Source: an uncultured Mycoplasmatota bacterium (GTDB lineage: Bacteria > Bacillota_I > Bacilli_A > RF39 > UBA660). Taken from it: DNA of 64,000 bases. Shown in pieces: positions 25,711 through 55,232 of this stretch. The position numbers were made by a program, and so were the translations under genes. The notes beneath the pieces are model-generated. The model saw only the letters and a list, made by a program, of their open reading frames with translations, ran no database searches and was not told the origin of the DNA. The stretch lies in NCBI GenBank assembly GCA_947302655.1, contig CAMYVW010000003.1, forward strand, positions 12,280 to 76,279. Reading direction: 5' to 3'. Each line of letters begins with the position of its first letter. Position 1 is the first letter of the stretch.

Positions 25711-25731
25711 ATTAATCCCTCTTTATTCTAA

Positions 25732-27273: not shown

Positions 27274-27275
27274 AT

Positions 27276-29282: not shown

Positions 29283-29351
29283 AATTATCTACTATCCTAT
29301 ACTACATAATATTCTACCATAATCACGGTTTTTTTCCAAGAAAAAAAACTC

Positions 29352-29894: not shown

Positions 29895-29951
29895 TTTCGC
29901 ACCACCTATACTATAAAATTATCATAACATACAAGTTATTATTCTTCAACA

Positions 29952-30839: not shown

Positions 30840-30847
30840 AAAATCAC

Positions 30848-31375
30848 CTATATTTTTTGATAACTTTTGATTTCAACATTAATATAATCAATTAAGTTTT
30901 TATACTCTTCAGTGTTATAGTTTCCATCAAAAGTAATTCGAAGTTCAAATGTATTTAATTCATTTCTTGTATGAGATAGTTCAAACGAATTAGTTTTACA
31001 AACTAGTTCATTATTTTCATTTCTACTATAAGTCTCATCACAAGTTAGAACTAAAGTATTATCCTTGTATAAATTTATTACAAGTGGAGCATAATGTGGT
31101 GTTATAATTGACAATTCATATAAAATTGATACATCACTTCTTGTATTATTCTTCACGTTAGTAATAGAAAAATTATGACTCATACTCTCTCCAGGAGATA
31201 GCTCACCTACAGGTATTTCTAATCTGTCAGTTACCTCAGAGTTAAAGACAAAACCAGCAAGTTTTTGATCAACACTTGATGCAACTACACCTGAATTAAA
31301 ATAAGAGTATGTAATTCCAAGACTAAACGTTAAAATTAAGAGTGAAATAATAATTATTAATACTTTTATTCTCAT
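30848..31375 (-). CDS. compact TasA/CalY-like protein with SipW-cognate signal
   Basis: SLGITYSYFNSGVVASSVDQKLAGFVF… then …LSPGESMSHNFSITNVKNNTRSDVSILYELSI, which is the TasA-fold core. 175 aa. Confidence 0.5.
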   Translation of the reverse strand: MRIKVLIIIISLLILTFSLGITYSYFNSGVVASSVDQKLAGFVFNSEVTDRLEIPVGELSPGESMSHNFSITNVKNNTRSDVSILYELSIITPHYAPLVINLYKDNTLVLTCDETYSRNENNELVCKTNSFELSHTRNELNTFELRITFDGNYNTEEYKNLIDYINVEIKSYQKI

Positions 31376-31384
31376 ATTACACCT

Positions 31385-34300
31385 CTACCTAATTATAAAG
31401 TACTTATTAATAGTATTAATGTACTCATCACCATTATATAAATCAAATGCTAATCTATAATATCCTTTTAACATATTAGTTGTATTAATAAATAAATCTA
31501 AATTATTAACAGTTGCAGGATTATTAGCATTATATAATGTAGCCCTTCTTGCAAGATAATAGACATTATTTACATATTGATCAAGTTGTGTTGAAGTATA
31601 ATCTTGAATATCAACAAGTGTATACTGCTGATTATATGCAGATAAAGTATTCTTTTTATAAAGTGAATATTTAATATTAGGATTATTTAATCCACTAACT
31701 ATTACACTATAATCAAGCTCTGCAGTAGATGGCTTATTATATATCATATCTTTATTATTAGTAACATCAAATACATATGTATAATTCTTTTCTTCTGTAG
31801 AATTAATTAAAGGAATTAAAACTCTACTATTACTATTTTGTGAAATAATAGTTTCACCATCATACGAAATATATGGAGTTATAGTAATGCTATAATTTCC
31901 ATCTAATAGATTATTTAAAGATCTATATGTAGAAATCTTAAGAATAAAGCTAGAAGTAGTATTAGTATTAAGATTTATTTTTATATTACCATTATTATCA
32001 GGAACATAAATATTATCAGAAACGCTAAATATAATACTCTTATAATAGTCTCTATTTATTACATTACCATTACTATCAACAATATTAATTAAAACTCCAA
32101 TAGTTTTATCATTAAAGAAGGTATCAGTAGCTTGTGAATTTAAAACATTGTTATAAAGTGTAACATTAGTTACAGAATCTGTATTATAGTTAATATTTTG
32201 ATTAAAGTTTGTTGTTAAAGAGTAACTAGTATTATAACTATCAGATGTTAAAACACTAAATGTGGTTTCATTGATATATGGTCTTACAATATTCATATTG
32301 TTATCAAGACCAACAATATTTAAGTAAATATTATGCATATCAGAACTTATAGTTGAAGAACTAAAATCAATGATTAAAGAAAATTCTTCGCTCTGAACAG
32401 ATCCACTCTGATATAAATTATTATTTCTTTTTCCAACAAGATTAAATAAACCAAAACTATAATAATATTTATTATTTAAGCTAATTGCATCATTTTGATT
32501 AACAGTATATGAATATGTATTATTATTAGTTTTATCAAATAACATAATACGTGTGCCGGTTGGCAGTAATGCATTAGAAATTAAATAGTGATCGAAACTT
32601 TGTTGATTTGTTGATGCATATGTTATATTCATCATTATTGATGATTTTTTTGTAATGATATTTCCTGATTCAAAACCAACAGGTTTTAAATCAGAAACAG
32701 CATATCCATCATAAATAATAAGTGGTGTTGATGCATAAGACACATTTCCAGCCAAATCAGTTGATCTAACATATAAAATATACTTTCCAGAAGAAGTTAT
32801 ATCAATTGGATTTACATAATCAGTCCACTGAACTGAACTTAAATCATTAATATCATTGTTTAAAAAATAATTTAAAGAAATACTATCTTGTGAATTATCA
32901 GTGCTAGATGCACTAATAGTTGCACCAGTATTAATGTAAACTTCATTATTATTAATTGAAGAATAAATGTTATTATTAAAATCTATACTAATTAAAGGAC
33001 CAGTTTTATCAATAATAATATTATCAGAATTAATATATGTAACTTTACCAGATAAATCAACAAACTTAACATAAATTATATAAGAGCCTTCATTTTGAAC
33101 TACTACAGGATCTGTATATGAAGTCCATGAAACATTATTTAAATCACTTGTTGATAACACTTGATCTTGATTACTTATATAATAATACTTTGTAGTTTGA
33201 AGAAGCTGACTATCATCTGCGATTGTAAAAGTTATATTAGAAGATATATACTTCTTATCAATAAATAGTGAGTATGTATCATAAGTATCAAGGTTTAAAT
33301 ATAATTTTGTATGATTATCACTGTTATCATCAAAATATAAAAGAGGATAATCACTTCCATTAAATACCCATTTATTTTGACTATTTGAACTATAATTATT
33401 TAAAGATACAAACTCATTGTAACTAGTTAGATATGTTTTATCTTTTAAATTATTATCAATTACCATATTTGATAAAACTAAATTATTATTTCTTGCATAA
33501 GTATAATAAATATTTTGTGAATTTATATTACTATTATAAAGATGTGAAATTATATCATTATCAGTTGTTAAAAAACTGTTTTCAAAAACTAAATTTGAAT
33601 TTATTAAATATCCAATAAAGCCATTACTTATAGTTCCAGCATTATAAGAATTACTAATTGAACTATTGCCCTTTAAAACTCCTATTAAATTTGAATCATT
33701 TGAATAACCATTTCCATAACTATAAGAACTATCGATATTAGTATCAATCGCATAACCTATTAATAAACCAGTTATATCTCCACCATAAACGCTTGCTCTA
33801 TTAATAATATTTGAAATTGATGAACCTTCAGAATATGCAGCAACAGCACCATTTATTGATAATGATATTTGGTCATAGTCTGCATAAAGTGTTGTTTCAT
33901 CATAAAGACTAGCGCTAGATTCATCAATTAAAAGTCCACTTATATAAATACTATCAAGTGTTCCATTTGTTAAATTTGTAGTTAAAATAGCTTTATTCTT
34001 AACAACAATATTATTTAAATATAAGGATGATACATCACCACTTATATTTTCAAATAATGGAGAGTTGCTATAATAACCATATATAGTCTTAAAATTACCA
34101 TCTAAATAACCTTCAAAATTCGACATTGAAGGGAACATATTAAGAGTTCCTACTTCTTCTTGAGTAAAATCAGAAGAGCTATAATACTTATTATCATTAA
34201 CAAAATATGCATTACCATTTAAATTATATTTTAACGTATCATTTTCATAATAAAAATAACCGTCATTAATTACAATATCATTTATAATTTTAAAATATTT

Positions 34301-34555
34301 ACCATCATATGTATCATTTTCCAAGTTACTTGCAAAATAAGCAAATTCTTCAGGTGAAGAAATAATATACGGATTATTTCTTGTTCCACTACCAGATCTA
34401 TATGATGAAGCAACATTACCTGACCATACTCTAGCATCTGATAATGATGTTCCCTTTTTAAATCTGCCAAATGCCGGTAATATACAAAAAGGAAGTGATA
34501 TTAAAGCAACCATAAAAATAGCATAAATTATTTTTCTATTTTTACTTATACTCAT
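31385..34555 (-). CDS. 1056-aa secreted Asn/Ser/Tyr-rich protein (putative fibre tip/adhesin) with SipW-cognate-like signal
   Basis: Signal …LISLPFCILPAFGRFKKGTS. The GTRNNPYIISSPEEFAYF segment is typical of beta-helix surface proteins. Composition is extremely N/S/Y/T-rich throughout. Confidence 0.5.
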   Translation of the reverse strand: MSISKNRKIIYAIFMVALISLPFCILPAFGRFKKGTSLSDARVWSGNVASSYRSGSGTRNNPYIISSPEEFAYFASNLENDTYDGKYFKIINDIVINDGYFYYENDTLKYNLNGNAYFVNDNKYYSSSDFTQEEVGTLNMFPSMSNFEGYLDGNFKTIYGYYSNSPLFENISGDVSSLYLNNIVVKNKAILTTNLTNGTLDSIYISGLLIDESSASLYDETTLYADYDQISLSINGAVAAYSEGSSISNIINRASVYGGDITGLLIGYAIDTNIDSSYSYGNGYSNDSNLIGVLKGNSSISNSYNAGTISNGFIGYLINSNLVFENSFLTTDNDIISHLYNSNINSQNIYYTYARNNNLVLSNMVIDNNLKDKTYLTSYNEFVSLNNYSSNSQNKWVFNGSDYPLLYFDDNSDNHTKLYLNLDTYDTYSLFIDKKYISSNITFTIADDSQLLQTTKYYYISNQDQVLSTSDLNNVSWTSYTDPVVVQNEGSYIIYVKFVDLSGKVTYINSDNIIIDKTGPLISIDFNNNIYSSINNNEVYINTGATISASSTDNSQDSISLNYFLNNDINDLSSVQWTDYVNPIDITSSGKYILYVRSTDLAGNVSYASTPLIIYDGYAVSDLKPVGFESGNIITKKSSIMMNITYASTNQQSFDHYLISNALLPTGTRIMLFDKTNNNTYSYTVNQNDAISLNNKYYYSFGLFNLVGKRNNNLYQSGSVQSEEFSLIIDFSSSTISSDMHNIYLNIVGLDNNMNIVRPYINETTFSVLTSDSYNTSYSLTTNFNQNINYNTDSVTNVTLYNNVLNSQATDTFFNDKTIGVLINIVDSNGNVINRDYYKSIIFSVSDNIYVPDNNGNIKINLNTNTTSSFILKISTYRSLNNLLDGNYSITITPYISYDGETIISQNSNSRVLIPLINSTEEKNYTYVFDVTNNKDMIYNKPSTAELDYSVIVSGLNNPNIKYSLYKKNTLSAYNQQYTLVDIQDYTSTQLDQYVNNVYYLARRATLYNANNPATVNNLDLFINTTNMLKGYYRLAFDLYNGDEYINTINKYFIIR

Positions 34556-34571
34556 AACATCACCTTCTTAT

Positions 34572-35642
34572 CTAAAATTCATAACCTGCTAAATCTTTTT
34601 CAAGATCTAAACTTAAATTTAGTGGAGCTCCCTCAGAATGAACTTCTAAAGCATCTATATCTTGTCCTTCTATCCAAAGGTAAACTCTAACTTTAGTAAT
34701 TCCATTTGGTATTTGAAACAATGGTTCAGAAAATTCATCGTCTTTTCTTGTTTCCTGAAGAGCAAAGTGTTCTGTATCAAAAGAACCGCTAGAAGAAATA
34801 AGCCCACTTTTATGATCAAGTCTTCTTCCTTCTTTAATAACTGCATACGTAGGAACATATGTGTTATCAACAAGATCAATACCAAATTCTTTTACAGCAT
34901 CAATAGATTCTTGATTGTGCTTCAAACTATTTGGTTCATAAATAAGCGAAACGCATTCATTATTACACTGTAAATTTTGAATAGTATATACATCAGCTTT
35001 TAAATCCGTTTCTCCAATTTTTACAAATCCGAGTCTAATAGAGTTCATAATATCTTCCATTTTTTCCCTAGTTTCTTGATCTGCAGTTTCATCAAACTCA
35101 ATATAAGTTCCACTACTTAAATAAAGATTATCTTTATATGGAGATCCAGATACATTCTTTAAAAATATATCAAAAGCTATATAGTTACTATACTCACTTG
35201 GACTATCTTCTGAAATCAAATCAGTATTAACAAATCTTTTACCTCTTCTTGCTTTATCAGTATATTTTCCCATTGATCCTGAATAAACATCAAATTTATC
35301 ATTGTTTGGAGAAGAAATACCATTTGATGAAACTGACCAAAGACCATTAGTAGCCCATTGATTAGTATGATTAGGATAATTTTTCTTAACTTCATGTATA
35401 ACAGACTCTCTAGATATTTCAATAGAATCAGAAAAATTAACACCATCTAAAGAAATAAATAAACCTGTATCTGTTGATACTTTAACATTAAAGAATTTAA
35501 TTTTAACATTTAAGGATGCTGAAAACCATGCATAAGTTGCAAAAAGAAAAACTACACCAACAAAAAATGTAACAAGAAAGATATATTTAGTTTTCTTAGA
35601 AAACTTTGGAATATGAAGTTTTTCTTTTATGTTAGTTTTCAT
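34572..35642 (-). CDS. TasA-like fibre subunit paralogue (SipW-cognate signal)
   Basis: …FLFATYAWFSASLNVKIKFFNVKVSTDTGLFISLDG…, and a C-terminal motif KVRVYLWIEGQDIDALEV shared with the two major-subunit genes. The RBS GGAGGA precedes the ATG at 35642. Confidence 0.55.
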   Translation of the reverse strand: MKTNIKEKLHIPKFSKKTKYIFLVTFFVGVVFLFATYAWFSASLNVKIKFFNVKVSTDTGLFISLDGVNFSDSIEISRESVIHEVKKNYPNHTNQWATNGLWSVSSNGISSPNNDKFDVYSGSMGKYTDKARRGKRFVNTDLISEDSPSEYSNYIAFDIFLKNVSGSPYKDNLYLSSGTYIEFDETADQETREKMEDIMNSIRLGFVKIGETDLKADVYTIQNLQCNNECVSLIYEPNSLKHNQESIDAVKEFGIDLVDNTYVPTYAVIKEGRRLDHKSGLISSSGSFDTEHFALQETRKDDEFSEPLFQIPNGITKVRVYLWIEGQDIDALEVHSEGAPLNLSLDLEKDLAGYEF

Positions 35643-35654
35643 AATATCCTCCAT

Positions 35655-35734
35655 TAATAAATTAAGGAATAATCAGTAACCGACTATTCCTTAACTTTTA
35701 TTTGTAACAAAACATAAGCTTTGTTTATTAATTA
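35655..35734 (-). promoter_or_regulatory. inter-cistronic hairpin (partial terminator/attenuator) downstream of the major-subunit genes
   Basis: GGAATAATCAGTAACCGACTATTCC imperfect hairpin in an 80-nt gap. Confidence 0.3.
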
Positions 35735-37420
35735 TTATTCATTAGTAACAGTTACAGTTACAACTTCAGTAGCTACGTTTCCAGCTTCATCTGCTACTTC
35801 ATATAATACTCTGTATACACCAGGTACTGCATTATTTACAGTTCCTGTTATAGTAGCATGAATTCCAGATCCTTCTGGTCCATACCATTCATCTGCATCA
35901 TCTGCAGTGTCATGAGTATATGGAGTTAAGTTATCAGTAATAGCTGTAATTGTAGGTTGAGTGAATGTACCGTTCTTAGCTATAGTTTGATTTTGAGATC
36001 CGCTTAATGTAATAACAGGAGCAGTCTTATCTATAGTTTTTAACTTAGTAATAATTTGAGCTTCTGTTGGACTTACACCTTCACCAAGTTCTAATTCTGT
36101 AGCTAAAGCTTCAATTATTTCAGCTCTTGTTTGGTTAGGTCCTTCACCTTGATTTAGTACTGGTCCTTGATAGTTAATATCATCTTCAGTAAATCTTTCT
36201 TTAGTGAATCCGAAGTTAACAGCTATTTGTTTACCTATAGAAGCAAAGTCATAGTTATCAATGTCTTGTCCTTCAATATAGATATACACTCTAACTTTTG
36301 TAATACTATTTGGTGCTAAAGTAATGAATGTAGGTCTTTCAACACCAGTTTTTAATTTCATTGTATCAGTAAAGTATGGATATGCAAATAAGTATTTACC
36401 AGCATTTCCTTCAGCAGCACTAATAGCAATAGCCTCAGTATCAGCTATATCTCCAGTATAGCTATTAAATGCACTACCATCATAGATATCAACTGAATTC
36501 ATAGCAGTGATTTCTTTACCAATCGCATATGTTGGATATGTTTGACCATCAACTACTGTTCCACACGCACCTTCATAAGAAGCAGCTAAGCTTGTATCAG
36601 TTCCAGCAGCTTTTCTTGCTCTACAAGTAGTATTATACCAAGTTAGAGCATCTGGTACGTGGTTTGTATCATTTGGTTCCCAAATTTGAGCTGTACGGCA
36701 AATACCAGTTACAGTCGAATCAGTTGCACAAGTAATACCTTGAATTGTTGATGCATCTGTATTAGTTGCCTCTACACGACCAATTTGTGCAAATGCAACA
36801 CGAACAGAATTTTCAATACCAGTGTTTGCAACGCCTGTTGATCCAACTACAACCTTAGAATCATTTGTTAAATAAATTGCTTCTTCGTTAAGTGGATTAT
36901 TTGTCTGGTAATATTCAGCACCAGATGAGTTTTTAATAAATAAGTCGAATGCAACATAACCATCAGGTGTTGTAGAATCGTTATTAACTCTACTAGCCAT
37001 TAATCTATAACCACCTGCAGTAGTTGTTAAACTACCTTTTTCAAATAATGTTAAACGACTTGTTGTTGTATTAATAATACCAATTGATGACATAGGAATT
37101 AATCCACGTCCACCCCAAGTATTTGTATTAGTTGGGTATGGATTTCCTTGTGCAGTTAATGTATTATCTGCAGCAGTCTCTGCAGCAGGGTTTCTAAAGT
37201 TTGTACTGTTAATTGCTACTGTATCGCTCCAGTTTACACCATCAAGTGATAACTGTAAGTCTTCTGTTGCAGCAATACGAACTTCGAATGGAGAAACATT
37301 AACAGTTCTCATACCAATAAACCATGCATAAGTTGCTGTTCCTAGGACGATTGCCATAAAAGTAAATACTATAGCAAGTCGCAATATTCTTTTTTTCTTA
37401 CTAGAATTCTTCCTTTTCAT
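35735..37420 (-). CDS. TasA-like major fibre subunit with C-terminal Ig-like (DUF5011-type) domain
   Basis: …LGTATYAWFIGMRTVNVSPFEVRIAATEDLQLSLDG…VRVYIYIEGQDIDNYDFASIGKQIAVNFGFTKERFTE… followed by …NAVPGVYRVLYEVADEAGNVATEVVTVTVTNE. Its Thr/Ala/Gly-rich composition and GC-richer codon use resemble the ribosomal-protein genes in this window. Confidence 0.6.
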   Translation of the reverse strand: MKRKNSSKKKRILRLAIVFTFMAIVLGTATYAWFIGMRTVNVSPFEVRIAATEDLQLSLDGVNWSDTVAINSTNFRNPAAETAADNTLTAQGNPYPTNTNTWGGRGLIPMSSIGIINTTTSRLTLFEKGSLTTTAGGYRLMASRVNNDSTTPDGYVAFDLFIKNSSGAEYYQTNNPLNEEAIYLTNDSKVVVGSTGVANTGIENSVRVAFAQIGRVEATNTDASTIQGITCATDSTVTGICRTAQIWEPNDTNHVPDALTWYNTTCRARKAAGTDTSLAASYEGACGTVVDGQTYPTYAIGKEITAMNSVDIYDGSAFNSYTGDIADTEAIAISAAEGNAGKYLFAYPYFTDTMKLKTGVERPTFITLAPNSITKVRVYIYIEGQDIDNYDFASIGKQIAVNFGFTKERFTEDDINYQGPVLNQGEGPNQTRAEIIEALATELELGEGVSPTEAQIITKLKTIDKTAPVITLSGSQNQTIAKNGTFTQPTITAITDNLTPYTHDTADDADEWYGPEGSGIHATITGTVNNAVPGVYRVLYEVADEAGNVATEVVTVTVTNE

Positions 37421-37448
37421 ATATATTTCCTTTCCTTCTCAGTCTATA

Positions 37449-39056
37449 TTATTCTGTTACAGTAACAGTAGAAATTGCTTCAGCATAATTTCCTTGCCAG
37501 TCACTTACTAAGTACCTAACTACATATGTACCTGCAGTAGCAACTACTGGGTTAGTTACTTGAACCTTAGTAGTTAAATCAAATGTACACTTATTATTAG
37601 CCCATGTTCCTTGAGCAGTGTTACATTTAGCTTCAGTATCTTCAGCACCAACGTCTGATGCAGTTACACCAGCCATTGGGTTATAACTTGCAACTTGTGC
37701 AACTGTTAAGTTCTTAGTAGCTTCTACACCAGCTATAATAGGTTTAATCTCATCACCTGTTGGCATGTTAGGTCCATCTATACCTTGAGCTTCTTCTTCA
37801 GTAAATCTCTCTTTAGTAAATCCAAATGAAACATTTATTTGTTTTCCTATAGATGAGAAATCATAGTTATCAATATCTTGTCCTTCAATCCATACATAAA
37901 CTCTTATCTTAGTAATACTATTAGGAGCAAGTGTAATAAATGTTGGGCGATTAATACCAGTTAAATTTTTCTCGGTATCAGTAAAGTAATCGTAGGCATA
38001 TAGTGGTTGGCTATCACTATAATTTGTTCTTGTAGTAGCAGAATATCCATTATATTGAGTTCCATCATAAATATCAACTTTATCAGCTATATCAACAACA
38101 CGTCCTACAGCATAAGTATTTTTTGCAGTACCATTAGCAACTGCTGTACAAGCTCCATCTAATGTATAAGATGTTGCAAGTGTAATATCAGTTGGATCTG
38201 TTATTGGATCAACTGCAGCCTTTCTAGGTCTACAAGAAGTATTGTAATAACTTATAGCATTATTAACGTGAGCAATATCATTTGGTTCCCAAATTTGAGC
38301 TACACGGCAAATACCAGTTACAGGAGAGTTTTCTCCAGGAACACATTTAATTCCAGTTATTGTATTAACATCAGTTGTTTTTGCATTAACACGACCAATT
38401 TGTGCAAAAGCTACACGAACTGAATTTTCAAGTCCAGTATTAGCAACTCCAGTTGAACCAACACTAACTTGAGAATCTGTAGTTAAATAAATTGGTTCCT
38501 CATTCAAAATATTATCTTCTGTGTAGTATGCTTGACCTGAGAAGTTCTTAACAAATAAGTCAAATGCAATATATCCACCATTTTCAGTATTAAATCCATA
38601 AGCATTTACTGAATTTGCATACTGCTGATTAGTTTGATAATTGTGAATTCGGCTTGCAAGAAGTCTATAACCACCAGGTGTAGCAGTTAAACTACCCTTC
38701 TCATACATCTTCATTGTAGAAGATGCTGTGTCGATTTCACCAATTGAAGAAATTGGTTTTAGGCCAGGATTGACAGCTCCAGTACCAAGTCCTGCCCAGT
38801 TATTAACATTACCTGTATAAGATACTGAACTAAAGTTACCACTATCTATTGTAACAGTCGTATCCCAGGTATTTCCATCAAGAGATAAAAGCAAACTATC
38901 AGTACTTGCTATGTCAATTTCAAAGCTTTGAACATTAACAGCTCTCATACCGATAAACCATGCATAAGTTGATACTGCAAATACTATTAATAAAAGAAAT
39001 GAAATAACAACTAATCGCTTAACTCTTTTAGATTTTAGATTTTCATTTTTGTTCAT
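37449..39056 (-). CDS. TasA-like major fibre subunit, tandem paralogue of 35735-37420
   Basis: …AVSTYAWFIGMRAVNVQSFEIDIASTDSLLLSLDG…IRVYVWIEGQDIDNYDFSSIGKQINVSFGFTKERFTE…; it has the same architecture and codon bias. Confidence 0.6.
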   Translation of the reverse strand: MNKNENLKSKRVKRLVVISFLLLIVFAVSTYAWFIGMRAVNVQSFEIDIASTDSLLLSLDGNTWDTTVTIDSGNFSSVSYTGNVNNWAGLGTGAVNPGLKPISSIGEIDTASSTMKMYEKGSLTATPGGYRLLASRIHNYQTNQQYANSVNAYGFNTENGGYIAFDLFVKNFSGQAYYTEDNILNEEPIYLTTDSQVSVGSTGVANTGLENSVRVAFAQIGRVNAKTTDVNTITGIKCVPGENSPVTGICRVAQIWEPNDIAHVNNAISYYNTSCRPRKAAVDPITDPTDITLATSYTLDGACTAVANGTAKNTYAVGRVVDIADKVDIYDGTQYNGYSATTRTNYSDSQPLYAYDYFTDTEKNLTGINRPTFITLAPNSITKIRVYVWIEGQDIDNYDFSSIGKQINVSFGFTKERFTEEEAQGIDGPNMPTGDEIKPIIAGVEATKNLTVAQVASYNPMAGVTASDVGAEDTEAKCNTAQGTWANNKCTFDLTTKVQVTNPVVATAGTYVVRYLVSDWQGNYAEAISTVTVTE

Positions 39057-39119
39057 ATACTTTCCCTTCCATATATTTAATAGAGTAATAATTGCTTATA
39101 CATGTTGCCTACAATCTAC

Positions 39120-39175
39120 TATATTACATATAGATTTTAACCTTATATTTGTCAAAAGTCAATTAAAATGTCATA
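39120..39175 (-). promoter_or_regulatory. promoter of the major-subunit genes
   Basis: Minus-strand TTGACA (39151-39156), a 17-nt spacer, then TATATG/TAATAT, in the 160-nt gap 5' of 37449-39056. Confidence 0.4.
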
Positions 39176-39187
39176 TTTTGTAGAAAT

Positions 39188-39231
39188 AAAAGACGAAAAA
39201 TTATTACTATTCGTAACTATTTTTCGTCTTT
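39188..39231 (-). terminator. intrinsic terminator after the 538-aa gene
   Basis: 12-bp perfect stem AAGACGAAAAAT / ATTTTTCGTCTT followed, on the minus strand, by a U-run. The stem overlaps the last codons KDEK*. Confidence 0.55.
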
Positions 39232-40824
39232 ACTATTTAACAGTTTGGAATTTTGTACAATAAACCATATTTTTTCAACAGATAGTGTACTTTTTTCTAT
39301 TTTATAAATCCTTTTAATGAACTCTATTTTATTAACTAGTACATCTAAGTTATCTTCATCTAAATCTTCAGAATTAATGTTAATATTTTCCATACGATAT
39401 CTATCTGATATTATTGAAGAAATACTAGCATCATCATTTATGCTAATTCCTTTAATTATTACATTATTTGGATTAGAAGCAAAATCATCAAATTGATCGC
39501 AAAGTTCTACAAATTGATTAGGGTCATCATGATCAAATATTTCTTTAAAAATTTCAATTTTAAAGAAAGTATAACAATAAAACAAATTAACAATATCACT
39601 TACATGTATGTTTCTATCAGATTGAAGCAATGAAATTTGTTTTTCAAACAATAACTTATCTCTTTTTAAATACATATCAAACAATTTGTTAGCTTGTTCT
39701 AATGAGGCATCTGTTGATTTTGATACAGCCTTATTTTTCTTGTTAAATAATGAACCAACATTTTTTACAAAATCTAATTTATTTGATCCTGTTAGCTTTG
39801 AAATAATTGCATTAATATCCTTTTCAACTTTTTTGATCTCATTATCAACATCACTAACAGTTCTCTTCTTAGAATAGTTTTCTTTAAAATATTCAAATAA
39901 AGGCATAAATTTTAAATAATACTTATACTCTATTGCATTCTGTTTCAATTTTTCTAAAACTGCAAGTAACTTGTTCATAGTCGCTTCATCACTATAATCG
40001 ATTTCATTAATTGTTAAAGTAGAAAGGGTAGTACTTCTAAATTTACTATCTTCAAAATAATTATTTATATCAATATCATTTTTAATTGCTTTTTCAACAA
40101 TATCAGCAATATCTTCTTCTAAAGAACTAGAGTAATCATTATAAAGTTTAGAATATTTATCTTTTAAATCATCATTTGATGATGATTTAGTATCAGCAAG
40201 AATCTTCTTCTTTTCATTTGCAATATATTCTTCAAAGTTCTTCTTATACTTATCAATCAAAATTATAAAATTCAGTTCGATGTGTTTTATAATATCATGA
40301 TTTTTCCAATATATTTCTTCAAACACTTTTGATAAGCCATCATAATTGTTCTTTGATTCAAAGTAAACTGTCATATATTTATTAACATATGAGGTTAAAT
40401 TAAAATCATCACTTTTTAAAACGACACCGGCCTTTTTGAATTTTTCAATTATGTTACTTATAAATATATTTATGTCTTCAAAAGTGTATTCAGAGTAAGA
40501 ATTTATATCATAAATAGCTTCATCAAGCTTAAGTTTTTCTTTAAATGAATTGCATGTATTAAATAAAAATAGTTTATCTTTAAAATCATCTAAAGATTTT
40601 TTAATCTTTTCTATATCATGTTTTTCTGATGAATATTTAAATGATGAACTTTTAGCGTTTATATATTTTGTAACTGCATCTTTGTAGTAATTATAAGACT
40701 TTAAAATTTCATCAATTTTTTGATTATATTTTTTTTGATTTGTTTTGTTATTTGTTGGAAGCGATTGAATCAAGGTTTTCTTTGATTCAATATCATTATT
40801 TATAAAATCCAAAAAATTATTCAT
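39217..40824 (-). CDS. hypothetical cytoplasmic Lys/Glu/Asp-rich protein (no TM, coiled-coil-like)
   Basis: I chose the start at MNNFLDF because GGAAGGAG lies 9 nt upstream. I recognise no domain in its ~535 aa. Confidence 0.45.
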   Translation of the reverse strand: MNNFLDFINNDIESKKTLIQSLPTNNKTNQKKYNQKIDEILKSYNYYKDAVTKYINAKSSSFKYSSEKHDIEKIKKSLDDFKDKLFLFNTCNSFKEKLKLDEAIYDINSYSEYTFEDINIFISNIIEKFKKAGVVLKSDDFNLTSYVNKYMTVYFESKNNYDGLSKVFEEIYWKNHDIIKHIELNFIILIDKYKKNFEEYIANEKKKILADTKSSSNDDLKDKYSKLYNDYSSSLEEDIADIVEKAIKNDIDINNYFEDSKFRSTTLSTLTINEIDYSDEATMNKLLAVLEKLKQNAIEYKYYLKFMPLFEYFKENYSKKRTVSDVDNEIKKVEKDINAIISKLTGSNKLDFVKNVGSLFNKKNKAVSKSTDASLEQANKLFDMYLKRDKLLFEKQISLLQSDRNIHVSDIVNLFYCYTFFKIEIFKEIFDHDDPNQFVELCDQFDDFASNPNNVIIKGISINDDASISSIISDRYRMENININSEDLDEDNLDVLVNKIEFIKRIYKIEKSTLSVEKIWFIVQNSKLLNSKDEK

Positions 40825-40951
40825 TATTAGCATCTCCTTCCTCTAATTTAGAGTCTTCTAGAAATGCGATGAATGAATTGATTGCATCTAATGTTTCAAT
40901 TAACTCTTTTAAAGTTAAATAAGACATATCAAAGTCTTTCTTAGCTTCCAC
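40817..40951 (-). CDS. small acidic protein (44 aa), translationally coupled to the 538-aa gene
   Basis: RBS AAGGGTGA followed by a GTG start (VEAKKDFDMSYLTLKELIETLDAINSFIAFLEDSKLEEGDANNE). Its stop overlaps the next start (ATGAATAA). Confidence 0.3.
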   Translation of the reverse strand: MEAKKDFDMSYLTLKELIETLDAINSFIAFLEDSKLEEGDANNE

Positions 40952-40966
40952 TAGTCATCACCCTTT

Positions 40967-41686
40967 TTAAATTTCTTTATCATATTTTTTAACATCAATT
41001 TCTTTAAATTCAGAATTGAATTCCATATGTAATTTTATTTCTCCACCAAGTAAATTGTCTGTGCAGTCAATATCAGAACCTTCAAGCCAAACAACAATAG
41101 TATATTTATCAATATCACCAGGTTTAAAGTTTTCCCTGTGATCAAGAGTAACTAACTTATCATTTTGAAAAGGTATGGTTCCTTCTTCGGGATTCCCATT
41201 TATACCTATCTTAGCATATGTTGTAGGTTCACCATTTTTATATATTCTAATTCTTATGGCAGTATCAATATTTTTTATTACATCATCAATAATTGTTTCT
41301 GACCAATAATCAGATGTATCAGTACCTGTATTTTCAATGTAAAAAGTATAAGCTATATAATTATCACCATTATGGGAACCATCAATATTATCAATATTTT
41401 CAGGTAACCATTTATAAGATATGTTGTCAAAATAATCTACTGCTTTTGCATATAATTCACTTCTAAACACCTTATAATCCGGATCATCATATATGATTAT
41501 TCCTCTTTCAAAATAAAGGTTCTTATCTAGTGTAATAGTAAAATTTCCATTGTTGTAAATAATTCTCATAACAATATAGGCTAGAAGAAGTAATAAAAGT
41601 ATTACAAGAACAGTTAATCTAACAATTCGTCTAATTTTTTTCTTTTTGCTAAGTTTTTTTACGCTAACTTCAACTTCATGACTCAT
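40967..41686 (-). CDS. membrane-anchored protein sharing the C-terminal W-x-EG-x-DID motif of the TasA-like subunits
   Basis: KKKKIRRIVRLTVLVILLLLLLAYIV… is an uncleaved-looking anchor with no YAWF box. …KYTIVVWLEGSDIDCTDNLLGGEIKLHMEFNSEF compares with VYIWIEGQDIDNYDF…VNFGFTKE. Confidence 0.45.
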   Translation of the reverse strand: MSHEVEVSVKKLSKKKKIRRIVRLTVLVILLLLLLAYIVMRIIYNNGNFTITLDKNLYFERGIIIYDDPDYKVFRSELYAKAVDYFDNISYKWLPENIDNIDGSHNGDNYIAYTFYIENTGTDTSDYWSETIIDDVIKNIDTAIRIRIYKNGEPTTYAKIGINGNPEEGTIPFQNDKLVTLDHRENFKPGDIDKYTIVVWLEGSDIDCTDNLLGGEIKLHMEFNSEFKEIDVKKYDKEI

Positions 41687-41875
41687 GCCTACCATCACCA
41701 TACACTATTCTAGTTAATTATAGAAAAATTAAAATTGAATGTCAATTATATCTAATCAATTTTAAATTAACATATATATTTACAGTAATTTACAAAATTA
41801 TGTACAGTTTGCTTTGCAAATAAATTGTATAGAACTGTAAAATATACTATAATATTTACAAAAGGAGGATTATGT

Positions 41876-42499
41876 GTGAAAAAAGTTTATTTACTATTAA
41901 TACTAGTTTCTTTTTCATTCTGTCTTTCTTTTATGAGCAGCACATACTCTAGGTATGTAGCTGGAACAACAGGAAATATTGACATACCATTTGCCAAATG
42001 GCAAATTCTTTTAAATACCCAAGATATTACTAGTCAAAATAATTCACAGTTAACATTTACCCCTGTAATTGAAACATCAAATAATGTAAATAGTGGTACA
42101 ATAGCTCCTTCATCAAAAGGATACTTTGATATAAGTATTAACCCTGAAAATGTTGATGTATCATTTAGTTACGCTATTAGTTTATCAATAGATGAAGAAA
42201 ATCTACCTGACCTTATTATTACAAAATATGCTATATTACCAGATAATTTTCAAGAAGGAGATACATTACAATACTCTACAATCACAAACAATATTATTGA
42301 AAATAGTCTTTACTATAACAACAACATTCAAAACTTTAGTTTCTCAGAATTTACAATTAGAGTATATTTTGAATGGCTAGAAAATGATCAAAATGAAGTA
42401 ATGGATGATGATGATGATACACAAGTGGGATTGGACGCTGCAGATCAAGAGACAACATTTAATATCTCTGCAAATATATCATTTGAACAAATAGTATAA
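41876..42499 (+). CDS. TasA-like secreted protein with SipW-cognate-like signal (divergently transcribed)
   Basis: AGGAGG followed by a GTG start gives MKKVYLLLILVSFSFCLSFMSSTYSRYVAGTTGNIDIPFAKW…GTIAPSSKGYFDISINPENVDVSFSYAISL. Confidence 0.5.
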   Translation: MKKVYLLLILVSFSFCLSFMSSTYSRYVAGTTGNIDIPFAKWQILLNTQDITSQNNSQLTFTPVIETSNNVNSGTIAPSSKGYFDISINPENVDVSFSYAISLSIDEENLPDLIITKYAILPDNFQEGDTLQYSTITNNIIENSLYYNNNIQNFSFSEFTIRVYFEWLENDQNEVMDDDDDTQVGLDAADQETTFNISANISFEQIV

Positions 42500-43473: not shown

Positions 43474-44136
43474 TTATTTTTGATCAATAAAATACCATTC
43501 CATAAATCGATTGCTCATATATTTATCATCATATTTACGATCGATATATTTTTCTAAACGATTACTCGGTTTTAATTCTCTGTGCCTTTCCGACCATCTA
43601 TATATACATATAGAAGTAAATAACAAATTAAAAATCATGAATATAGTAAAAATTGGCAATATAATTTTAAAAAATTTGTTGTAGGTGATTTTTAAACACT
43701 TTTTTATTAATGGAATAAATTGTTCAAAAACAATTCCAAATAAACCCCAAACAATAAACATAAATAAACAAATATATCCTCTATAATTCAGAAAGGAATT
43801 TTCATAACTCCACGCTCTCATGCCTAAACCAAAATCAAGGAGTATGCCGCATACTAGCTCAACAAAAGTACCCAAAAAAGCATAGATTATAAATTGTAAA
43901 AATATATTCTTCTTTTTAAAATAATTACAAAAGATATAATAAAAAACAACACCTACACCATAAATAATACAAAAATGTCCATAAATAGAAACTACATGTG
44001 ATTCCCATTTACCAAACTTTATTAAACAATAAAAACCTTCAATTATTAATCCAAAATATGATGCAGCTATAAAAAGCCAAAATAAATCCGAATATGTAAT
44101 TTTACTTTTTTCTTCCACAATAACACCTATATTCAA
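43474..44136 (-). CDS. polytopic membrane protein (DUF1113-like)
   Basis: 220 aa with about six TM helices. Confidence 0.35.
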   Translation of the reverse strand: MNIGVIVEEKSKITYSDLFWLFIAASYFGLIIEGFYCLIKFGKWESHVVSIYGHFCIIYGVGVVFYYIFCNYFKKKNIFLQFIIYAFLGTFVELVCGILLDFGLGMRAWSYENSFLNYRGYICLFMFIVWGLFGIVFEQFIPLIKKCLKITYNKFFKIILPIFTIFMIFNLLFTSICIYRWSERHRELKPSNRLEKYIDRKYDDKYMSNRFMEWYFIDQK

Positions 44137-50840: not shown

Positions 50841-50952
50841 CCTCGCACATATAAATTATATCAAAAATATATTTGTTTGTAATCATGATAATATTATAAA
50901 AAGCAAAAAAGTTCGGAGAACCGAACTTTTGAAACAACAATATAAGTATATA

Positions 50953-51372
50953 TTAACGTTTTGAGAATTGTGGAGCACGACGTGCTTTTTTAAGACCATA
51001 TTTCTTACGTTCTTTACTACGTGAATCACGAGTAACAAAACCGTTTACTTTAAGAATCTTTCTGTAAGCTGTATCACTAGATTGATCAGTATTAGAATCA
51101 AATGCCATTAAAGCTCTTGTAATACCTAAACGAATAGCTCCAGTTTGACCAGAGAATCCGCCACCCTTAACTGTAACATCAATATCGAATCTATTTTCAT
51201 TATTAGTAACAACTAATGGTTGTTTAAGATCCATAACTAATGTTTCGTAAGGCATGTAATCATTAACATCTTGTCCGTTAACAGTGATTTTACCAGTTCC
51301 GCCAACCATTCTTACTTGAGCGATTGATCTTTTACGACGACCTGTAGCAGTCCAAACTTGTTTATTAGCCAT
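50953..51372 (-). CDS. rpsI: 30S ribosomal protein S9
   Basis: …GRRKRSIAQVRMVGGTGKITVNG…LKKARRAPQFSKR. Confidence 0.95.
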   Translation of the reverse strand: MANKQVWTATGRRKRSIAQVRMVGGTGKITVNGQDVNDYMPYETLVMDLKQPLVVTNNENRFDIDVTVKGGGFSGQTGAIRLGITRALMAFDSNTDQSSDTAYRKILKVNGFVTRDSRSKERKKYGLKKARRAPQFSKR

Positions 51373-51383
51373 TGTTAACCTCC

Positions 51384-51815
51384 CTATTTAACTTCCATTA
51401 CTTCTGGTTTTTGAGCTTCATGTTTATGATCAGCACCAGCATATACAAATAATTTCTTACCCATAGCTCTACCTAAAGCGTTATGAGGAAGCATTCCTTT
51501 GATAGCTCTTTCAACCATTTCTTCTGGATATTTTTCAATCATAGTTTTAGCATTACGTTCTCTTAGTCCTCCTGGGAATCCACTGTGGTTATAATACATT
51601 TTGTCTTCTAACTTATTACCAGTTAAAATAACTTTATCTGCATTAATAACAATTACATAATCTCCACAATCAACATATGGAGTATATGTAGGTTTATGTT
51701 TTCCTCTTAGAACTGTAGCAACTTTAGTAGCTAAACGTCCTAAAGTTTTTCCCTCTGCGTCAACAACATACCACTTACGATCTACTGTTTCTTTTTTTTG
51801 CATAAATGTACTCAT
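51384..51815 (-). CDS. rplM: 50S ribosomal protein L13
   Basis: [46 protein letters not shown]…. Confidence 0.92.
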
Positions 51816-51946
51816 TTTAAATCCTTTCATTGCTTTCAATGCTTCAACTTTCCCACGGTTTAACATATCAGGCAAATAAAATGTACCGCTATAAATTATA
51901 TGAAATTACATATAAAAAGTCAATTAAAAACAGCAAAAAACTCCTG

Positions 51947-52681
51947 TTATTTACTGTTTTTACACATTTTATAATAAATATTTACCAAAGTTAATCCTTT
52001 TGCAGGTGCAGTTGAAAGCATCTTATCAGTTTTCGGAGAGTTTAAAAGGCTTTGTATATCTTCTATTTTTGCTCTTCCTTTTCCAACATCAATTAATGCT
52101 CCAACCATATTCCTTACCATATACCTATAGAAACTCTTACCATAGAAATGAATTGTTAATTTATTGGATTGTCTTACAAAACGTATTTTATAAATTATGC
52201 ACTCATAATTATTTCGCTCTCCACTTACAAAGTTTTGAAAATTATGAACTCCAATAAAACACTTTGAAGCTTTTTTCATTTCATTTATATTCAATTTTTT
52301 TGAATATAATAAATAATCAGAGTTATAGTCTTTCTTACTAAAAGATATCTTATACATATAATGCTTCTTTATAACAGAAAAACGGGAATGAAAATCATCT
52401 GAAACACTTTTTATTTTTTTTACCTTAATATAAATTAAATTATGATTTAAATATTTTTTTAATCTTAATAAATCGACACTGTCATCATAATCAAAATGAA
52501 AGTGTTGTCCCTTAGCATGAACGCCTTTGTCTGTCCTTCCCGCACCCTTGATTAATATTTTTTGATTAAAATATGTTGATAAGTTTTTTTCTATTTCGCT
52601 TTGAACAGAATTTTTATCATTTTGTCTTTGAAATCCGTAAAACTTACTACCATCATAACTGATTTTTACAAGATATCTCAT
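51947..52681 (-). CDS. truA: tRNA pseudouridine(38-40) synthase
   Basis: MRYLVKISYDGSKFYGFQRQ…GAGRTDKGVHA…. Confidence 0.85.
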   Translation of the reverse strand: MRYLVKISYDGSKFYGFQRQNDKNSVQSEIEKNLSTYFNQKILIKGAGRTDKGVHAKGQHFHFDYDDSVDLLRLKKYLNHNLIYIKVKKIKSVSDDFHSRFSVIKKHYMYKISFSKKDYNSDYLLYSKKLNINEMKKASKCFIGVHNFQNFVSGERNNYECIIYKIRFVRQSNKLTIHFYGKSFYRYMVRNMVGALIDVGKGRAKIEDIQSLLNSPKTDKMLSTAPAKGLTLVNIYYKMCKNSK

Positions 52682-53262
52682 TTTAACTCCCTATAAATAG
52701 CTTTTAAAACTTCATTTATATCATAATAATCTTCATGAAGATGATTTAAGTTTCTAGATTTACATACAAAATCAATTAAATGATGATTGTTAAAATATTC
52801 ATATACTTTTTCTTTGTAAATATCTTTTTTAGATATTATATGTTCAACTTCTCCGTTTTTAAAAATATGATACTCATCAACTAGATTCAAACAAAAAGAA
52901 AAATCATTCGTATTAATTAAAAAGGTAAATTTATAATCTTTTGATAGTTTTTTAAAAAGCTTTTTAAAATACTCTCTTTCTTTATAACACATACCTTTTT
53001 CAAAAAAATCGAGAAATATAACTTTTGAATCCATAATCAAGTCTTTTGCGAGAAGCAACTTATTATATTCAACATTTGATAAATCATTTGATTTTTTTAA
53101 TATATAATCTTCATTTAAATTTACCATTTTAAGAGCTTCAAGCACTTTATCTTTTTTTATAGAACGCGGTAGATTATCAAATATATATATTTCTTTTTTA
53201 TAATGTCTATATGAATTAAAACTATTGTCGATTATAGCAATAACTTTACCTTCTATTTCCAT
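52678..53262 (-). CDS. degenerate EcfA-like ABC ATPase domain protein (all catalytic motifs mutated)
   Basis: GKVIAIIDNSFNSYRH sits where Walker A belongs. DLSNVEYNKLLLAKDLIMDSKVIFLDFFEKGM replaces LSGGQ…ILLDEPT. FTFLINTNDF replaces the H-loop. It occupies the conserved ecfA position 5' of truA. Confidence 0.45.
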   Translation of the reverse strand: MEIEGKVIAIIDNSFNSYRHYKKEIYIFDNLPRSIKKDKVLEALKMVNLNEDYILKKSNDLSNVEYNKLLLAKDLIMDSKVIFLDFFEKGMCYKEREYFKKLFKKLSKDYKFTFLINTNDFSFCLNLVDEYHIFKNGEVEHIISKKDIYKEKVYEYFNNHHLIDFVCKSRNLNHLHEDYYDINEVLKAIYRELK

Positions 53263-53894
53263 AAAGCACTCACCAGCCCATCAACATCAGTATAAGTTTT
53301 TTTAACTAAATCATATGACTTCAATTTTAAGGATAAATCAAAAATAAAAGGTAAATTAAAACCTAACCTTTTTAAAAGTTTCTCCTCTGATAATACATCT
53401 TCAGTTTTTCCTTCAATGGCAACCCCAGATTCTGTTAAAACCATAAGATTCTTGGTCATAAAAACATCTTCAATATCTGATGTAATATTAATATAAATAA
53501 TATGATTTTCACTTAAATACTTTTTAATAATTTGTTTTTGCTCATCAGATAAGTAAGTAAAAACATTATCAAATATAACTATTCCTTCATTACTACTTAA
53601 AGCTGAAAGAACTTTTATATATATAATAGAAGATAAATCTAAAGAAGATATTATTTTATTTGTAATTGTTTGAAGATTAAAATAAGGAATTAAATTCATT
53701 TTAAATCCATTTAATTCAAGATATTTTTTTACAGAAATATTAAATGGTATTACATCAGAATTAATAAAAATATAATCTTCAAGAGGTAAAATATTTAATA
53801 ATCTATTTTTTATCTTTTCATCATTATAAATAATTGTTGAACAAACATCATACAATGTTAATTTGTATTTATCATATGTAAAAATCTTCTTCAT
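53253..53894 (-). CDS. degenerate EcfA-like ABC ATPase domain protein, second copy
   Basis: DLSSIIYIKVLSALSSNEGIVIFDNVFTYLSDEQK…IIYINITSDIEDVFMTKNLMVLTESGVAIEGKTEDVL aligns to the ABC signature, Walker B and H-loop regions, with every catalytic residue replaced. The C-terminus LLKRLGFNLPFIFDLSLKL resembles the EcfA C-terminal helix. There is no P-loop. Confidence 0.45.
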   Translation of the reverse strand: MKKIFTYDKYKLTLYDVCSTIIYNDEKIKNRLLNILPLEDYIFINSDVIPFNISVKKYLELNGFKMNLIPYFNLQTITNKIISSLDLSSIIYIKVLSALSSNEGIVIFDNVFTYLSDEQKQIIKKYLSENHIIYINITSDIEDVFMTKNLMVLTESGVAIEGKTEDVLSEEKLLKRLGFNLPFIFDLSLKLKSYDLVKKTYTDVDGLVSALWK

Positions 53895-53997
53895 AACTAA
53901 AATCTCCGTTTACTTATTATACTAAAACTAATTCAAAAGAAAAAGAATTAATATTAAATATTAATTCATTTGTTTAGTATTTATATAAAAACAATAG

Positions 53998-54297
53998 TTA
54001 GTTTGCTCTAATAATTATCTCATCTGGAGCTGAATATAGATATTTTTCCCTAGCATACCTTGCAACATACTCAGGGTTTTCAAGTTTTGTTGTTTCTGCT
54101 TTAAGAGATGCTTCTTCATCAAGAAGAACTTTCTTTTGATCATTCAATAAATGAATCTGGCGGTTATTATTTAGAATTTGTACCCAATCAGAAAAGACGC
54201 TTTTTACTAAAAAAGCTGATAAAGAAACCACTAAAAAAGATATCATAATAATACGTCTTTTTTCTTTTTTGCTCTTTCTTTTCTCCATACATACCAC
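53998..54297 (-). CDS. septum formation initiator (DivIC/FtsB family)
   Basis: One TM plus a coiled coil (…LLNDQKKVLLDEEASLKAETTKLENPEYVARYAREKY…). Confidence 0.6.
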   Translation of the reverse strand: MVCMEKRKSKKEKRRIIMISFLVVSLSAFLVKSVFSDWVQILNNNRQIHLLNDQKKVLLDEEASLKAETTKLENPEYVARYAREKYLYSAPDEIIIRAN

Positions 54298-54962: not shown

Positions 54963-55232
54963 CTATTCTGCTGCATCTGGAGCATTATTATACTCTTCTA
55001 AAATAGCATCTTGAAATTCTTTACGTACATCAGAATTTAGAGGATGACATATATCACTAAATCCACCAGTAGCTTTTTTCTTGCTAGGCATAGCGATGAA
55101 TAAACCATTTTCTCCTTCTATAATTCTTATGTCATGAATGGCAAATGCATCGTCTAGTACAACAGAAGCAAAACCTTTCACGTTTGAACCTTCACGGTCA
55201 AACTTTCTAACAGTAACTGATGTAATTTTCAT
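54963..55232 (-). CDS. spoVG: septation/sporulation regulator SpoVG
   Basis: MKITSVTVRKFDREGSNVKGFASVVLDDAFAIHDIRIIEGENGLFIAMPSKK…. Confidence 0.9.
   Translation of the reverse strand: MKITSVTVRKFDREGSNVKGFASVVLDDAFAIHDIRIIEGENGLFIAMPSKKKATGGFSDICHPLNSDVRKEFQDAILEEYNNAPDAAE

Follow-up and report, generated by a model that had tools for sequence, protein, structure and literature searches.

An intact pair of EcfA1- and EcfA2-derived proteins lacking ATP-site motifs upstream of truA in an uncultured Mycoplasmatota bacterium

Introduction

Many Firmicutes and Mollicutes depend on energy-coupling factor (ECF) modules for vitamin import. The modules count as obligate ATP-driven motors and are pursued as antibiotic targets. 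The canonical Firmicutes block has the gene order ecfA1-ecfA2-ecfT-truA-rplM-rpsI, and in genuine ECF modules the EcfA-specific C-terminal helices join EcfA to EcfA′ independently of nucleotide. Here we describe a locus of an uncultured Mycoplasmatota bacterium (assembly GCA_947302655.1, contig CAMYVW010000003.1) in which two overlapping genes, A1 and A2, precede truA and encode EcfA1 and EcfA2 descendants without the motifs of an ATP site. The stretch analysed spans 64 kb (contig positions 12,280 to 76,279); it is referred to as the window, and all coordinates are window positions.

The closest relatives of A1 and A2 are EcfA1 and EcfA2 of the group II ECF transporters (Lactobacillus delbrueckii 5jsz and 8bms, chains A and B; L. 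brevis 4huq). ECF ATPases carry a Q-helix of the form X-P-D/E-X-Q-hydrophobic after the Q-loop, and an acidic residue that binds an arginine of the EcfT coupling helix (PMC6828968; EcfT coupling helices are treated in PMC4820897). Drawing on Karpowich & Wang (2013) and Swier et al. (2016), PMC6828968 sets out the roles of the Q-helix, Asp105 and the C-terminal helices; citing Karpowich & Wang (2013), it states that the C-terminal helices of group II ECF ATPases contribute to dimerisation.

Two other groups of ATP-binding cassette (ABC) proteins bear comparison. The heterodimeric transporters with one degenerate site (TM287/288, TAP1/2, CFTR and ABCG5/G8) likewise tolerate a non-canonical Walker-B Glu, H-loop His and partner signature, but they keep one consensus site, still bind ATP at the degenerate site and are ATP-driven, whereas in A1 and A2 neither composite site survives, no P-loop is left and a transmembrane partner is lacking. 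The non-transport ABC dimers, PhnK/PhnL on C-P lyase, SufC, SmsC and ABCE1, are soluble dimers of nucleotide-binding domains (NBDs) that dock on non-transporter partners, and the structural matches of A2 include SmsC2 (9h7x) and PhnK/L (7z16); these proteins keep functional ATP sites, whereas A1 and A2 appear to be without canonical ATP binding.

Our preferred reading, to which we assign a probability of about 0.6, is that A1 and A2 are descendants of EcfA1 and EcfA2 that persist as a constitutive heterodimer, independent of nucleotide, whose role is structural or regulatory (a scaffold) and has nothing to do with driving transport. The full-text literature was searched for degenerate EcfA proteins or pseudo-EcfA, for ABC pseudoenzyme domains and for the loss of ECF modules from RF39/RFN20-type genomes; nothing relevant came up, and in particular no account of catalytically dead or truncated EcfA proteins. 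As far as the literature found extends, the diverged ECF ATPase family to which the pair belongs as an end-point is previously undescribed.

Results

An EcfA-derived gene pair overlapping truA

The genes and junctions of the locus are as follows.

53253-53894, minus strand: A1, 213 aa, start ATG, stop TAG
52678-53262, minus strand: A2, 194 aa, start ATG, stop TGA
51947-52681, minus strand: truA (tRNA pseudouridine38-40 synthase, PF01416), putatively translationally coupled to A2
51384-51875 (maximal open reading frame), minus strand: rplM, 3′ of truA
50953-51372, minus strand: rpsI, 3′ of rplM
53253-53262, minus strand: A1/A2 overlap ATGGAAATAG (10 nt), A1 stop overlapping A2 start
52678-52681, minus strand: A2/truA overlap ATGA, A2 stop overlapping truA start

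A first-pass annotation of this DNA had reported two overlapping open reading frames (ORFs) of ~200 aa ahead of truA-rplM-rpsI and no ecfT behind them, and this arrangement is confirmed: the ORFs encode 213 and 194 aa and overlap by 10 nt, and at the locus no ecfT lies between A2 and truA, which overlap directly. The pair resembles group II EcfA1/EcfA2 in its position before truA-rplM-rpsI, in the order A1 then A2, in the overlap of the genes and in fold, and A1-A2-truA together with rplM-rpsI appears to be the remainder of the ancestral six-gene block.

The same annotation had related both proteins to EcfA and the ABC ATPases, and profile and fold searches agree, though with scores far below the family cut-offs. 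Among NCBIfam profiles A1 matches TIGR04520 (EcfA1) with an E value of 8e-12, residues 97-212 aligning to model positions 149-269, so that the C-terminal half of the model alone is covered and the score is 45.1 bits against a cut-off of 315. A2 matches PotA (E 5e-13) and TIGR04521 (EcfA2; E 2e-10), in the latter case over part of the model (residues 37-152 to model positions 121-236) and with 40.3 bits against a cut-off of 330. The Pfam ABC_tran family (PF00005) recovers A2 with an E value of 0.009 (17 bits, gathering cut-off 25); a Pfam search of A1 gave no match, and its relationship emerged through NCBIfam, PDB sequence searches and hhalign. HMMER searches of PDB sequences align A1 to L. 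delbrueckii EcfA1 from the Walker-B strand through the final residue, and align A2 from the helical subdomain to beyond the H-loop. A1 thus keeps the EcfA1 C-terminal domain (EEKLLKRLGFNLPF...LVSALWK against VEMLKRIGLDIPF...LVQSLWQ of L. delbrueckii EcfA1), A1 164-213 corresponding to 225-277 of that protein with the terminal LW(K/Q) included; the shared pattern, ...LKR(L/I)G(F/L)xLPF...LVxxLW, runs to the last residue, and the helical subdomain and the Walker-B and H-loop strands are kept as well.

AlphaFold2 models of the two monomers have a predicted local distance difference test (pLDDT) score of 85 and a predicted template modelling (pTM) score of 0.77 for A1, and 87 and 0.81 for A2. In Foldseek searches of the PDB the A1 model finds EcfA1 chains first (8bmp_A, E 2e-11; 6zg3_F; 8bms_A) and the A2 model finds EcfA2 chains (4mki_B, E 6e-10; 8bms_B, TM-score 0.75), with TM-scores of 0.68-0.75. 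More than 990 PDB ABC chains are matched by these NBD folds at E<1e-3, ECF ATPases ranking first, and the matches divide by chain, A1 going to chain A and A2 to chain B. Comparison by hhalign of the short A1 and A2 families with long forms from related genomes plus one PDB sequence gives a probability of 100%. In one relative with full-length proteins (locus L020) A1 and A2 match TIGR04520 and TIGR04521 best, respectively, and do so end to end, which fixes the assignment of A1 to EcfA1 and of A2 to EcfA2. Profiles, structure prediction, gene position and intermediate forms together identify A1 as an EcfA1 orthologue and A2 as an EcfA2 orthologue. Homologues in the databases are named 'hypothetical protein', 'ATP-binding cassette domain-containing protein' or with an oligopeptide-transporter label.

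Loss of ATP-site and EcfT-docking features

Motifs were located in two ways, with HMMER comparisons to PDB chains and with hhalign alignments of the short families to full-length relatives plus the PDB sequence. In A1 the Walker A motif GHNGSGKST is replaced by YNDEKIKNR (23-31), with the Lys kept and all Gly gone, and ~28 residues are deleted behind the P-loop helix. By the same hhalign alignment the Q-loop Gln is Ser46, the Q-helix is lost, D--VIP standing opposite NPDNQF, and Tyr58 takes the place of the EcfT-arginine-binding Asp (D105 of L. delbrueckii EcfA1). The A1 signature LSGGQKQR has become LDLSSIIY (85-92); the first-pass assignment of LSALS to this position does not hold, as LSALS (96-100) lies a helix turn further along, in the helix after the signature, and the true equivalent of LSGGQ is LDLSS (85-89). 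The Walker B and H-loop readings made at that stage, DN for DE and Ser for His, are correct: Walker B is IVIFDN (105-110), where ILDES has become IFDNV with the Asp retained, and the H-loop has ITSD (137-140) for ITHD, with Ser in place of His. The C-terminal helices are modelled at 171-176, 183-193 and 204-212, and the total loss of length is ~50 residues.

A2 is more strongly reduced, with ~80 N-terminal residues missing, Walker A included, and a total loss of ~85. Its DNSFNSYRH had been proposed as a replaced Walker A; MAFFT aligns the first strand of the protein, VIAIIDNSFNSYRH, as a vestigial Walker-A strand and hhalign takes DNSFNSYRH as the Q-loop strand, so that this assignment depends on the alignment, and A2 has no P-loop under either. 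The Q-helix is lost (FPENQL aligns to SFNSYR, or the region is deleted) and the EcfT-arginine-binding Asp is Ile27 or falls in deleted sequence by hhalign. The other A2 motifs are as first read: the signature is LSNVE (61-65) for LSGGQ, Walker B is IFLDFF (82-87), with LDEP changed to LDFF so that the Asp is retained and the Glu lost, and the H-loop is NTND (117-120), where VTH has become NTN. The C-terminal helices are retained, modelled at 161-171 and 182-193 and ending KAIYRELK.

Taken together, A1 and A2 are without P-loop, Q-loop Gln, Q-helix, LSGGQ, catalytic Glu and H-loop His, and are shortened by a quarter to a third of their length. They differ from EcfA1/EcfA2 in the absence of the catalytic motifs and the Q-helix, in being 50-85 residues shorter, in the replacement of the EcfT-binding Asp and in having no adjacent ecfT. 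Judged by sequence, canonical ATP binding or hydrolysis by either protein should be impossible, the EcfT-docking features that define ECF ATPases are lost, and the proteins fail as functional ECF/ABC ATPases on every catalytic and coupling feature examined.

Open frames and purifying selection

At the local base composition (23% G+C in the A1-A2 region) the probability of a stop is 0.103 per codon, or about one stop in ten codons. The chance of an open frame of 213 codons is 8e-11, in line with the earlier argument that frames of ~600 nt would be unlikely to stay open by chance, and the other five frames hold 24-59 stops. The protein database contains 21 A1 homologues, all of 213 aa and with identity down to 46%, and about 50 A2 homologues of 193-199 aa with identity down to 55%, none of them with frameshifts or stops.

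Ratios of nonsynonymous to synonymous divergence (dN/dS) were calculated by the method of Nei and Gojobori (NG86) for 22 genes, comparing the window with two syntenic lineages (L026 and L027) that are collinear with it over 20 kb. The values are 0.15-0.26 for A1 and 0.08-0.15 for A2, in the range of those for truA (0.10-0.15), rsmA (0.14-0.16) and the GT4 glycosyltransferase (0.15-0.22) of the same block; they are approximate because synonymous sites are near saturation (dS ~0.9-1.4), yet clearly well below 1. With each protein divided into four segments, all segment values are below 0.55, the vestigial N-termini included, and the most constrained segment is A2 81-128, comprising the Walker-B strand, D-loop, next helix and H-loop strand (0-0.06). 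In sequence sets that reach down to 29-35% identity, 30 residues of A1 and 22-29 of A2 are invariant, mostly at fold-defining and C-terminal positions. A1 and A2 are under purifying selection at the protein level and are not pseudogenes, so the suggestion that they are maintained and not decaying stands, including by the dN/dS comparison with relatives that had been proposed as a check. Neither of the two outcomes named there as refuting, disrupted orthologues or profile searches without an ABC-domain relationship, was observed.

Slow decay of relic ecfA1 and ecfA2 pseudogenes after loss of the transporter would suit the loss of all catalytic motifs, the truncation of both proteins, the loss of ecfT and the scores far under the family cut-offs. 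Against this, frames are intact in all of more than 70 homologues and in 17 species-level genomes, the lengths are fixed at 213 and 194 aa in the subclade, and both the dN/dS values and the open-frame probability are as given above; this explanation is effectively refuted by the intact orthologues and dN/dS, and we find it scarcely credible. Translational coupling or DNA-borne regulatory signals might alternatively keep the frames open with the protein products immaterial, and the A1/A2 and A2/truA stop/start overlaps are indeed conserved in all loci, with the Shine-Dalgarno sequence of truA sitting within A2. Coupling would select against stops and frameshifts, not against amino-acid changes, and the constraint is on protein and not DNA, beyond upkeep of the frame for coupling, because dS is high (~1) while dN is low; the 30 invariant residues of A1, the 22-29 of A2 and the confident AlphaFold2 models also speak against this explanation, which we consider highly unlikely.

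In the same comparisons spoVG (54963-55232), rplM and rpsI have dS values of 0.05-0.19 among L001, L026 and L027, as against ~1 for the other 19 genes, a difference that points either to a very strong constraint on codon usage or to segments that have recently recombined.

Related loci and a series of reduced forms

When one genome per GTDB species was scanned, the pair turned up at 16 more loci; the metagenome-assembled genomes concerned come from rumen and from rabbit, mouse and human gut and carry the labels Bacilli, Tenericutes, Mycoplasma sp. or Erysipelotrichaceae. No locus has a disrupted A1 or A2, the stop/start overlaps are conserved, and the coupled A1-A2-truA unit is kept in all 17 related loci. 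The loci fall into stages. In three (L029, L020 and L019) A1 has 262-269 aa and A2 269-276 aa, and a membrane protein of 209-243 aa follows before truA; here A1 has an intact Walker A (GPSGSGKTT) with LSTND, LDD and TS replacing LSGGQ, LDE and TH, and A2 has already lost the P-loop, signature and His. In four others (L028, L014, L021 and L006) A1 and A2 are full-length and carry these same changes, and the gene for the membrane protein is absent. L018 and L023 encode proteins of 221 and 214 aa (A1 and A2), with the A1 P-loop still present, and the shorter stages have 192-227 and 203-206 aa, 213 and 194 aa (the group of the window), or 158 and 186 aa (L015). The long degenerate forms (e.g. those of L020, L014, L006 and L028) thus share family and synteny with the window pair and have already lost the signature, Walker-B Glu and H-loop His; they differ in their length of 250-270 aa, in the intact A1 Walker A (GxxGSGKT[ST]) and, in some, in the presence of a diverged EcfT.

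In a rough neighbour-joining tree, built on shared columns, rooted on canonical sequences and carrying no support values, L029 is basal, followed by the long forms and then L018, and the short forms (158-227 and 186-214 aa) are monophyletic. L028, which has no membrane-protein gene, clusters with L020, which has one, so ecfT may have disappeared on more than one occasion.

Searched exhaustively by HMMER with the A1 profile, a set of 1.84 billion representative proteins contained 1254 relatives at E<1e-3, of which 621 reached E<1e-10. In the best 150 of these, GxxGSGKT is kept by most members of 240-270 aa, while the signature is degenerate, Walker B reads DD or DN and the H-loop has S, T or N; few are canonical (e.g. 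P0195, P0165 and P0211). From these motif states the window pair is the extreme end of a broad, diverged ECF ATPase family.

Two genes absent from the canonical order occur at related loci. A radical-SAM protein of 170-174 aa (Fer4_12 and Radical_SAM domains, resembling NrdG-type activases) lies between divIC and A1 in many relatives and is not in the window:

L007 2559-3071
L009 8805-9317
L015 9014-9532
L019 and L020 8280-8804
L022 and L024 8660-9175
L028 2993-3514

In one subclade (L007 5127-6878; L024 11224-12984) truA and rplM are separated by an inserted gene for a DUF87/HerA-like ATPase of 583-586 aa.

EcfT and S-components

The membrane proteins that follow A2 at the three long loci belong to a family whose profile aligns over its full length with L. 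brevis EcfT (4hzu_T, E 4e-10) and has no Pfam match. Its members are:

L020 10458-11189 and L029 4828-5457: diverged EcfT-like membrane family, 209-248 aa
P0230-P0256: further members of the family

The first coupling-helix Arg-Gly is mostly Lys-Gly or Asn-Gly in this family, which looks like a very diverged EcfT persisting beside ATPases without catalytic residues.

Transporter partners were sought by a hydropathy screen for multi-transmembrane ORFs followed by Pfam and NCBIfam searches. Among such ORFs of the window no EcfT/CbiQ or S-component was found, the proteins being DUF308, UppP, MscL and one PF06541 protein, and none was found among those of ~290 kb of related flanks (~353 kb with the window). 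Of 27 homologues of the L020-type EcfT, none sits on a contig with the same length as any contig that carries a short pair, a weak negative in that the search needs shared 5-mers.

These results bear on the possibility that the A1/A2 dimer is a passive brace for a diverged EcfT encoded elsewhere, S-components providing ATP-independent facilitated uptake. The earlier-branching L020, L019 and L029 keep a conserved, very diverged EcfT beside ATPases that are already degenerate, so some lineages seem to maintain, under selection, an A-A′-T assembly that does not hydrolyse ATP. In both window proteins, on the other hand, the Q-helix is gone and the docking Asp is replaced (Tyr58 in A1; Ile27 or a deletion in A2), the 0 of 27 result counts weakly in the same direction, and there is no EcfT or S-component Pfam match in the ~353 kb; for the window pair we rate a brace unlikely.

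The PF06541 protein (ABC_trans_CmpB, 'putative ABC-transporter type IV') has five transmembrane segments and is encoded 4-9 kb downstream of A1-A2-truA, even in relatives with ~38% A2 identity, a recurrence that could reflect conserved gene order or a functional link:

43474-44136, minus strand: window
L009 19652-20290
L014 9046-9702
L021 11882-12550
L027 19258-19899

Gene boundaries, coding and neighbouring genes

Further features of the locus are as follows; those at 53904-53907 and 53945-53967 were read from the sequence.

53998-54297: divIC, upstream neighbour of A1
53945-53967, minus strand: perfect palindrome of A and T only, GAATTAATATT-T-AATATTAATTC, with a T-run after it, divIC-A1 intergenic region
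53904-53907, minus strand: putative Shine-Dalgarno GGAG, 9 nt 5′ of the A1 ATG
53269-53274, minus strand: Shine-Dalgarno-like GGTGAG for A2, within the 3′ end of A1
52687-52692, minus strand: putative Shine-Dalgarno AGGGAG for truA, within the 3′ end of A2
51895-51923, minus strand: promoter-like site between truA and rplM, from a scan that gave 31 sites against 25 expected in AT-rich DNA
50907-50930, minus strand: terminator-like hairpin closing the truA-rplM-rpsI block

The palindrome may act as a weak terminator or as a regulatory site or operator, setting divIC apart from the A1-A2-truA unit. The genes upstream of the pair are of sporulation type (yabG, veg, spoVG, yabP, yabQ and divIC). 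Genetic code 4 (TGA = Trp), raised by the Mycoplasma and Tenericutes labels on some relatives, was rejected: the conserved genes of the window are full-length under code 11, code 4 would lengthen A2 by 4 residues only, and the organism appears to use the standard bacterial code.

Elsewhere in the window a SipW/archaeal-type signal peptidase I (23999-24562, minus strand) matches TIGR02228 with 83 bits, over the cut-off. The ORFs beside it (24574-41701, minus strand; 41825-42499, plus strand) encode proteins of 175-1056 aa without family matches, most with one N-terminal transmembrane helix ending in a TYAWF-like motif, which we take to resemble SipW-dependent signal peptides of the TasA/camelysin type; together with the peptidase they may make up a cluster devoted to secreted or surface proteins. 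Next to a TetR-like regulator lies the gene for a [FeFe]-hydrogenase large subunit with ferredoxin-type clusters (15216-16430, minus strand; PF02906, E 2e-63), which is consistent with an anaerobic fermentative lifestyle.

Discussion

Across a clade of uncultured gut bacteria selection keeps A1 and A2 intact despite the loss of the ATP motifs, of part of their length and of the gene for the membrane partner, so that the two proteins probably now serve another purpose, one for which ATP is not required. As an evolutionary pattern this is solid, and it comes as something of a surprise. We interpret the locus as a dismantled form of the shared group II ECF vitamin-transporter module in a lineage of gut and rumen Bacilli that are uncultured and very AT-rich. 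The membrane-subunit gene ecfT has gone from the locus; both proteins have lost the ATP-binding and hydrolysis elements, the Q-helix and the acidic-groove features for EcfT docking, and the RecA-like N-terminal subdomain of each is incomplete. Left over is a compact ABC-fold core, made up of the helical subdomain, Walker-B strand, D-loop helix and H-loop strand, plus the EcfA-specific C-terminal helices. A1, A2 and truA would be expressed as a translationally coupled unit; A1 and A2 would still pair through their C-terminal domains, as retention of the C-terminal helices suggests, and the resulting constitutive, nucleotide-independent heterodimer would act as a structural or regulatory scaffold, apart from the energising of transport. 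The conserved A2 face LD(Y/F)FEKG(L/M)C-KE(K/R)EYFK(K/R)LFKKL is the best candidate for a functional surface.

Several points weigh against this reading. The expression, dimerisation and partners proposed for A1 and A2 are read from genes and monomer models, and the dN/dS values come from genes near synonymous saturation. The context of truA and ribosomal-protein genes is ancestral and hence holds no clue to function. A relocated ecfT, S-components or a second canonical ECF module may be present in other parts of the genome. Loss of the docking features is also not uniform across the clade, because three loci without the membrane-protein gene (L014, L022 and L024) still have the acidic residue to which the EcfT arginine normally binds.

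Instead of forming a generic scaffold, the remnant domains may have been recruited to bind one particular new partner or ligand, such as tRNA/TruA, ribosomal components or a membrane protein like the CmpB-type PF06541 protein. Former active-site positions are invariant though non-canonical (Lys29, Ser46, Asp109 and Ser139 of A1; Asp85, Gly90 and Asn119 of A2), and A2 tends to be basic, most members having an isoelectric point of 8-9.4 where L. brevis EcfA2 has 5.35, but a high Lys content is expected at 23-26% G+C. The link to truA is universal, but it is ancestral and canonical in Firmicutes; likewise the PF06541 gene recurs 4-9 kb downstream in distant relatives, but it is not adjacent and may reflect conserved gene order only. 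We regard such a dedicated partner as rather improbable.

On the scaffold reading, the conversion could extend through the clade, an ECF energising module having become a nucleotide-independent 'pseudo-NBD' heterodimer with a new cellular role, and the proteins would then represent a natural minimal ABC-fold core of ~190 aa that can fold and be selected without a P-loop; this broader proposal is tentative, and we hold it at somewhat less than even odds. For annotators the locus is a caution, as labels such as 'ABC transporter ATP-binding protein' on genes of this kind would be functionally wrong. The graded forms offer a natural series of progressively miniaturised ABC domains in which the structurally indispensable parts of the fold can be studied, and they raise the question of what an ABC nucleotide-binding-domain pair can do without nucleotide. 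On the broader proposal the pattern in the relatives, with A1 retaining only the P-loop, A2 dead and EcfT diverged, would imply ECF modules without ATP hydrolysis in many uncultured gut Bacilli. The losses in the clade also raise the question of how these reduced-genome gut and rumen organisms obtain vitamins.

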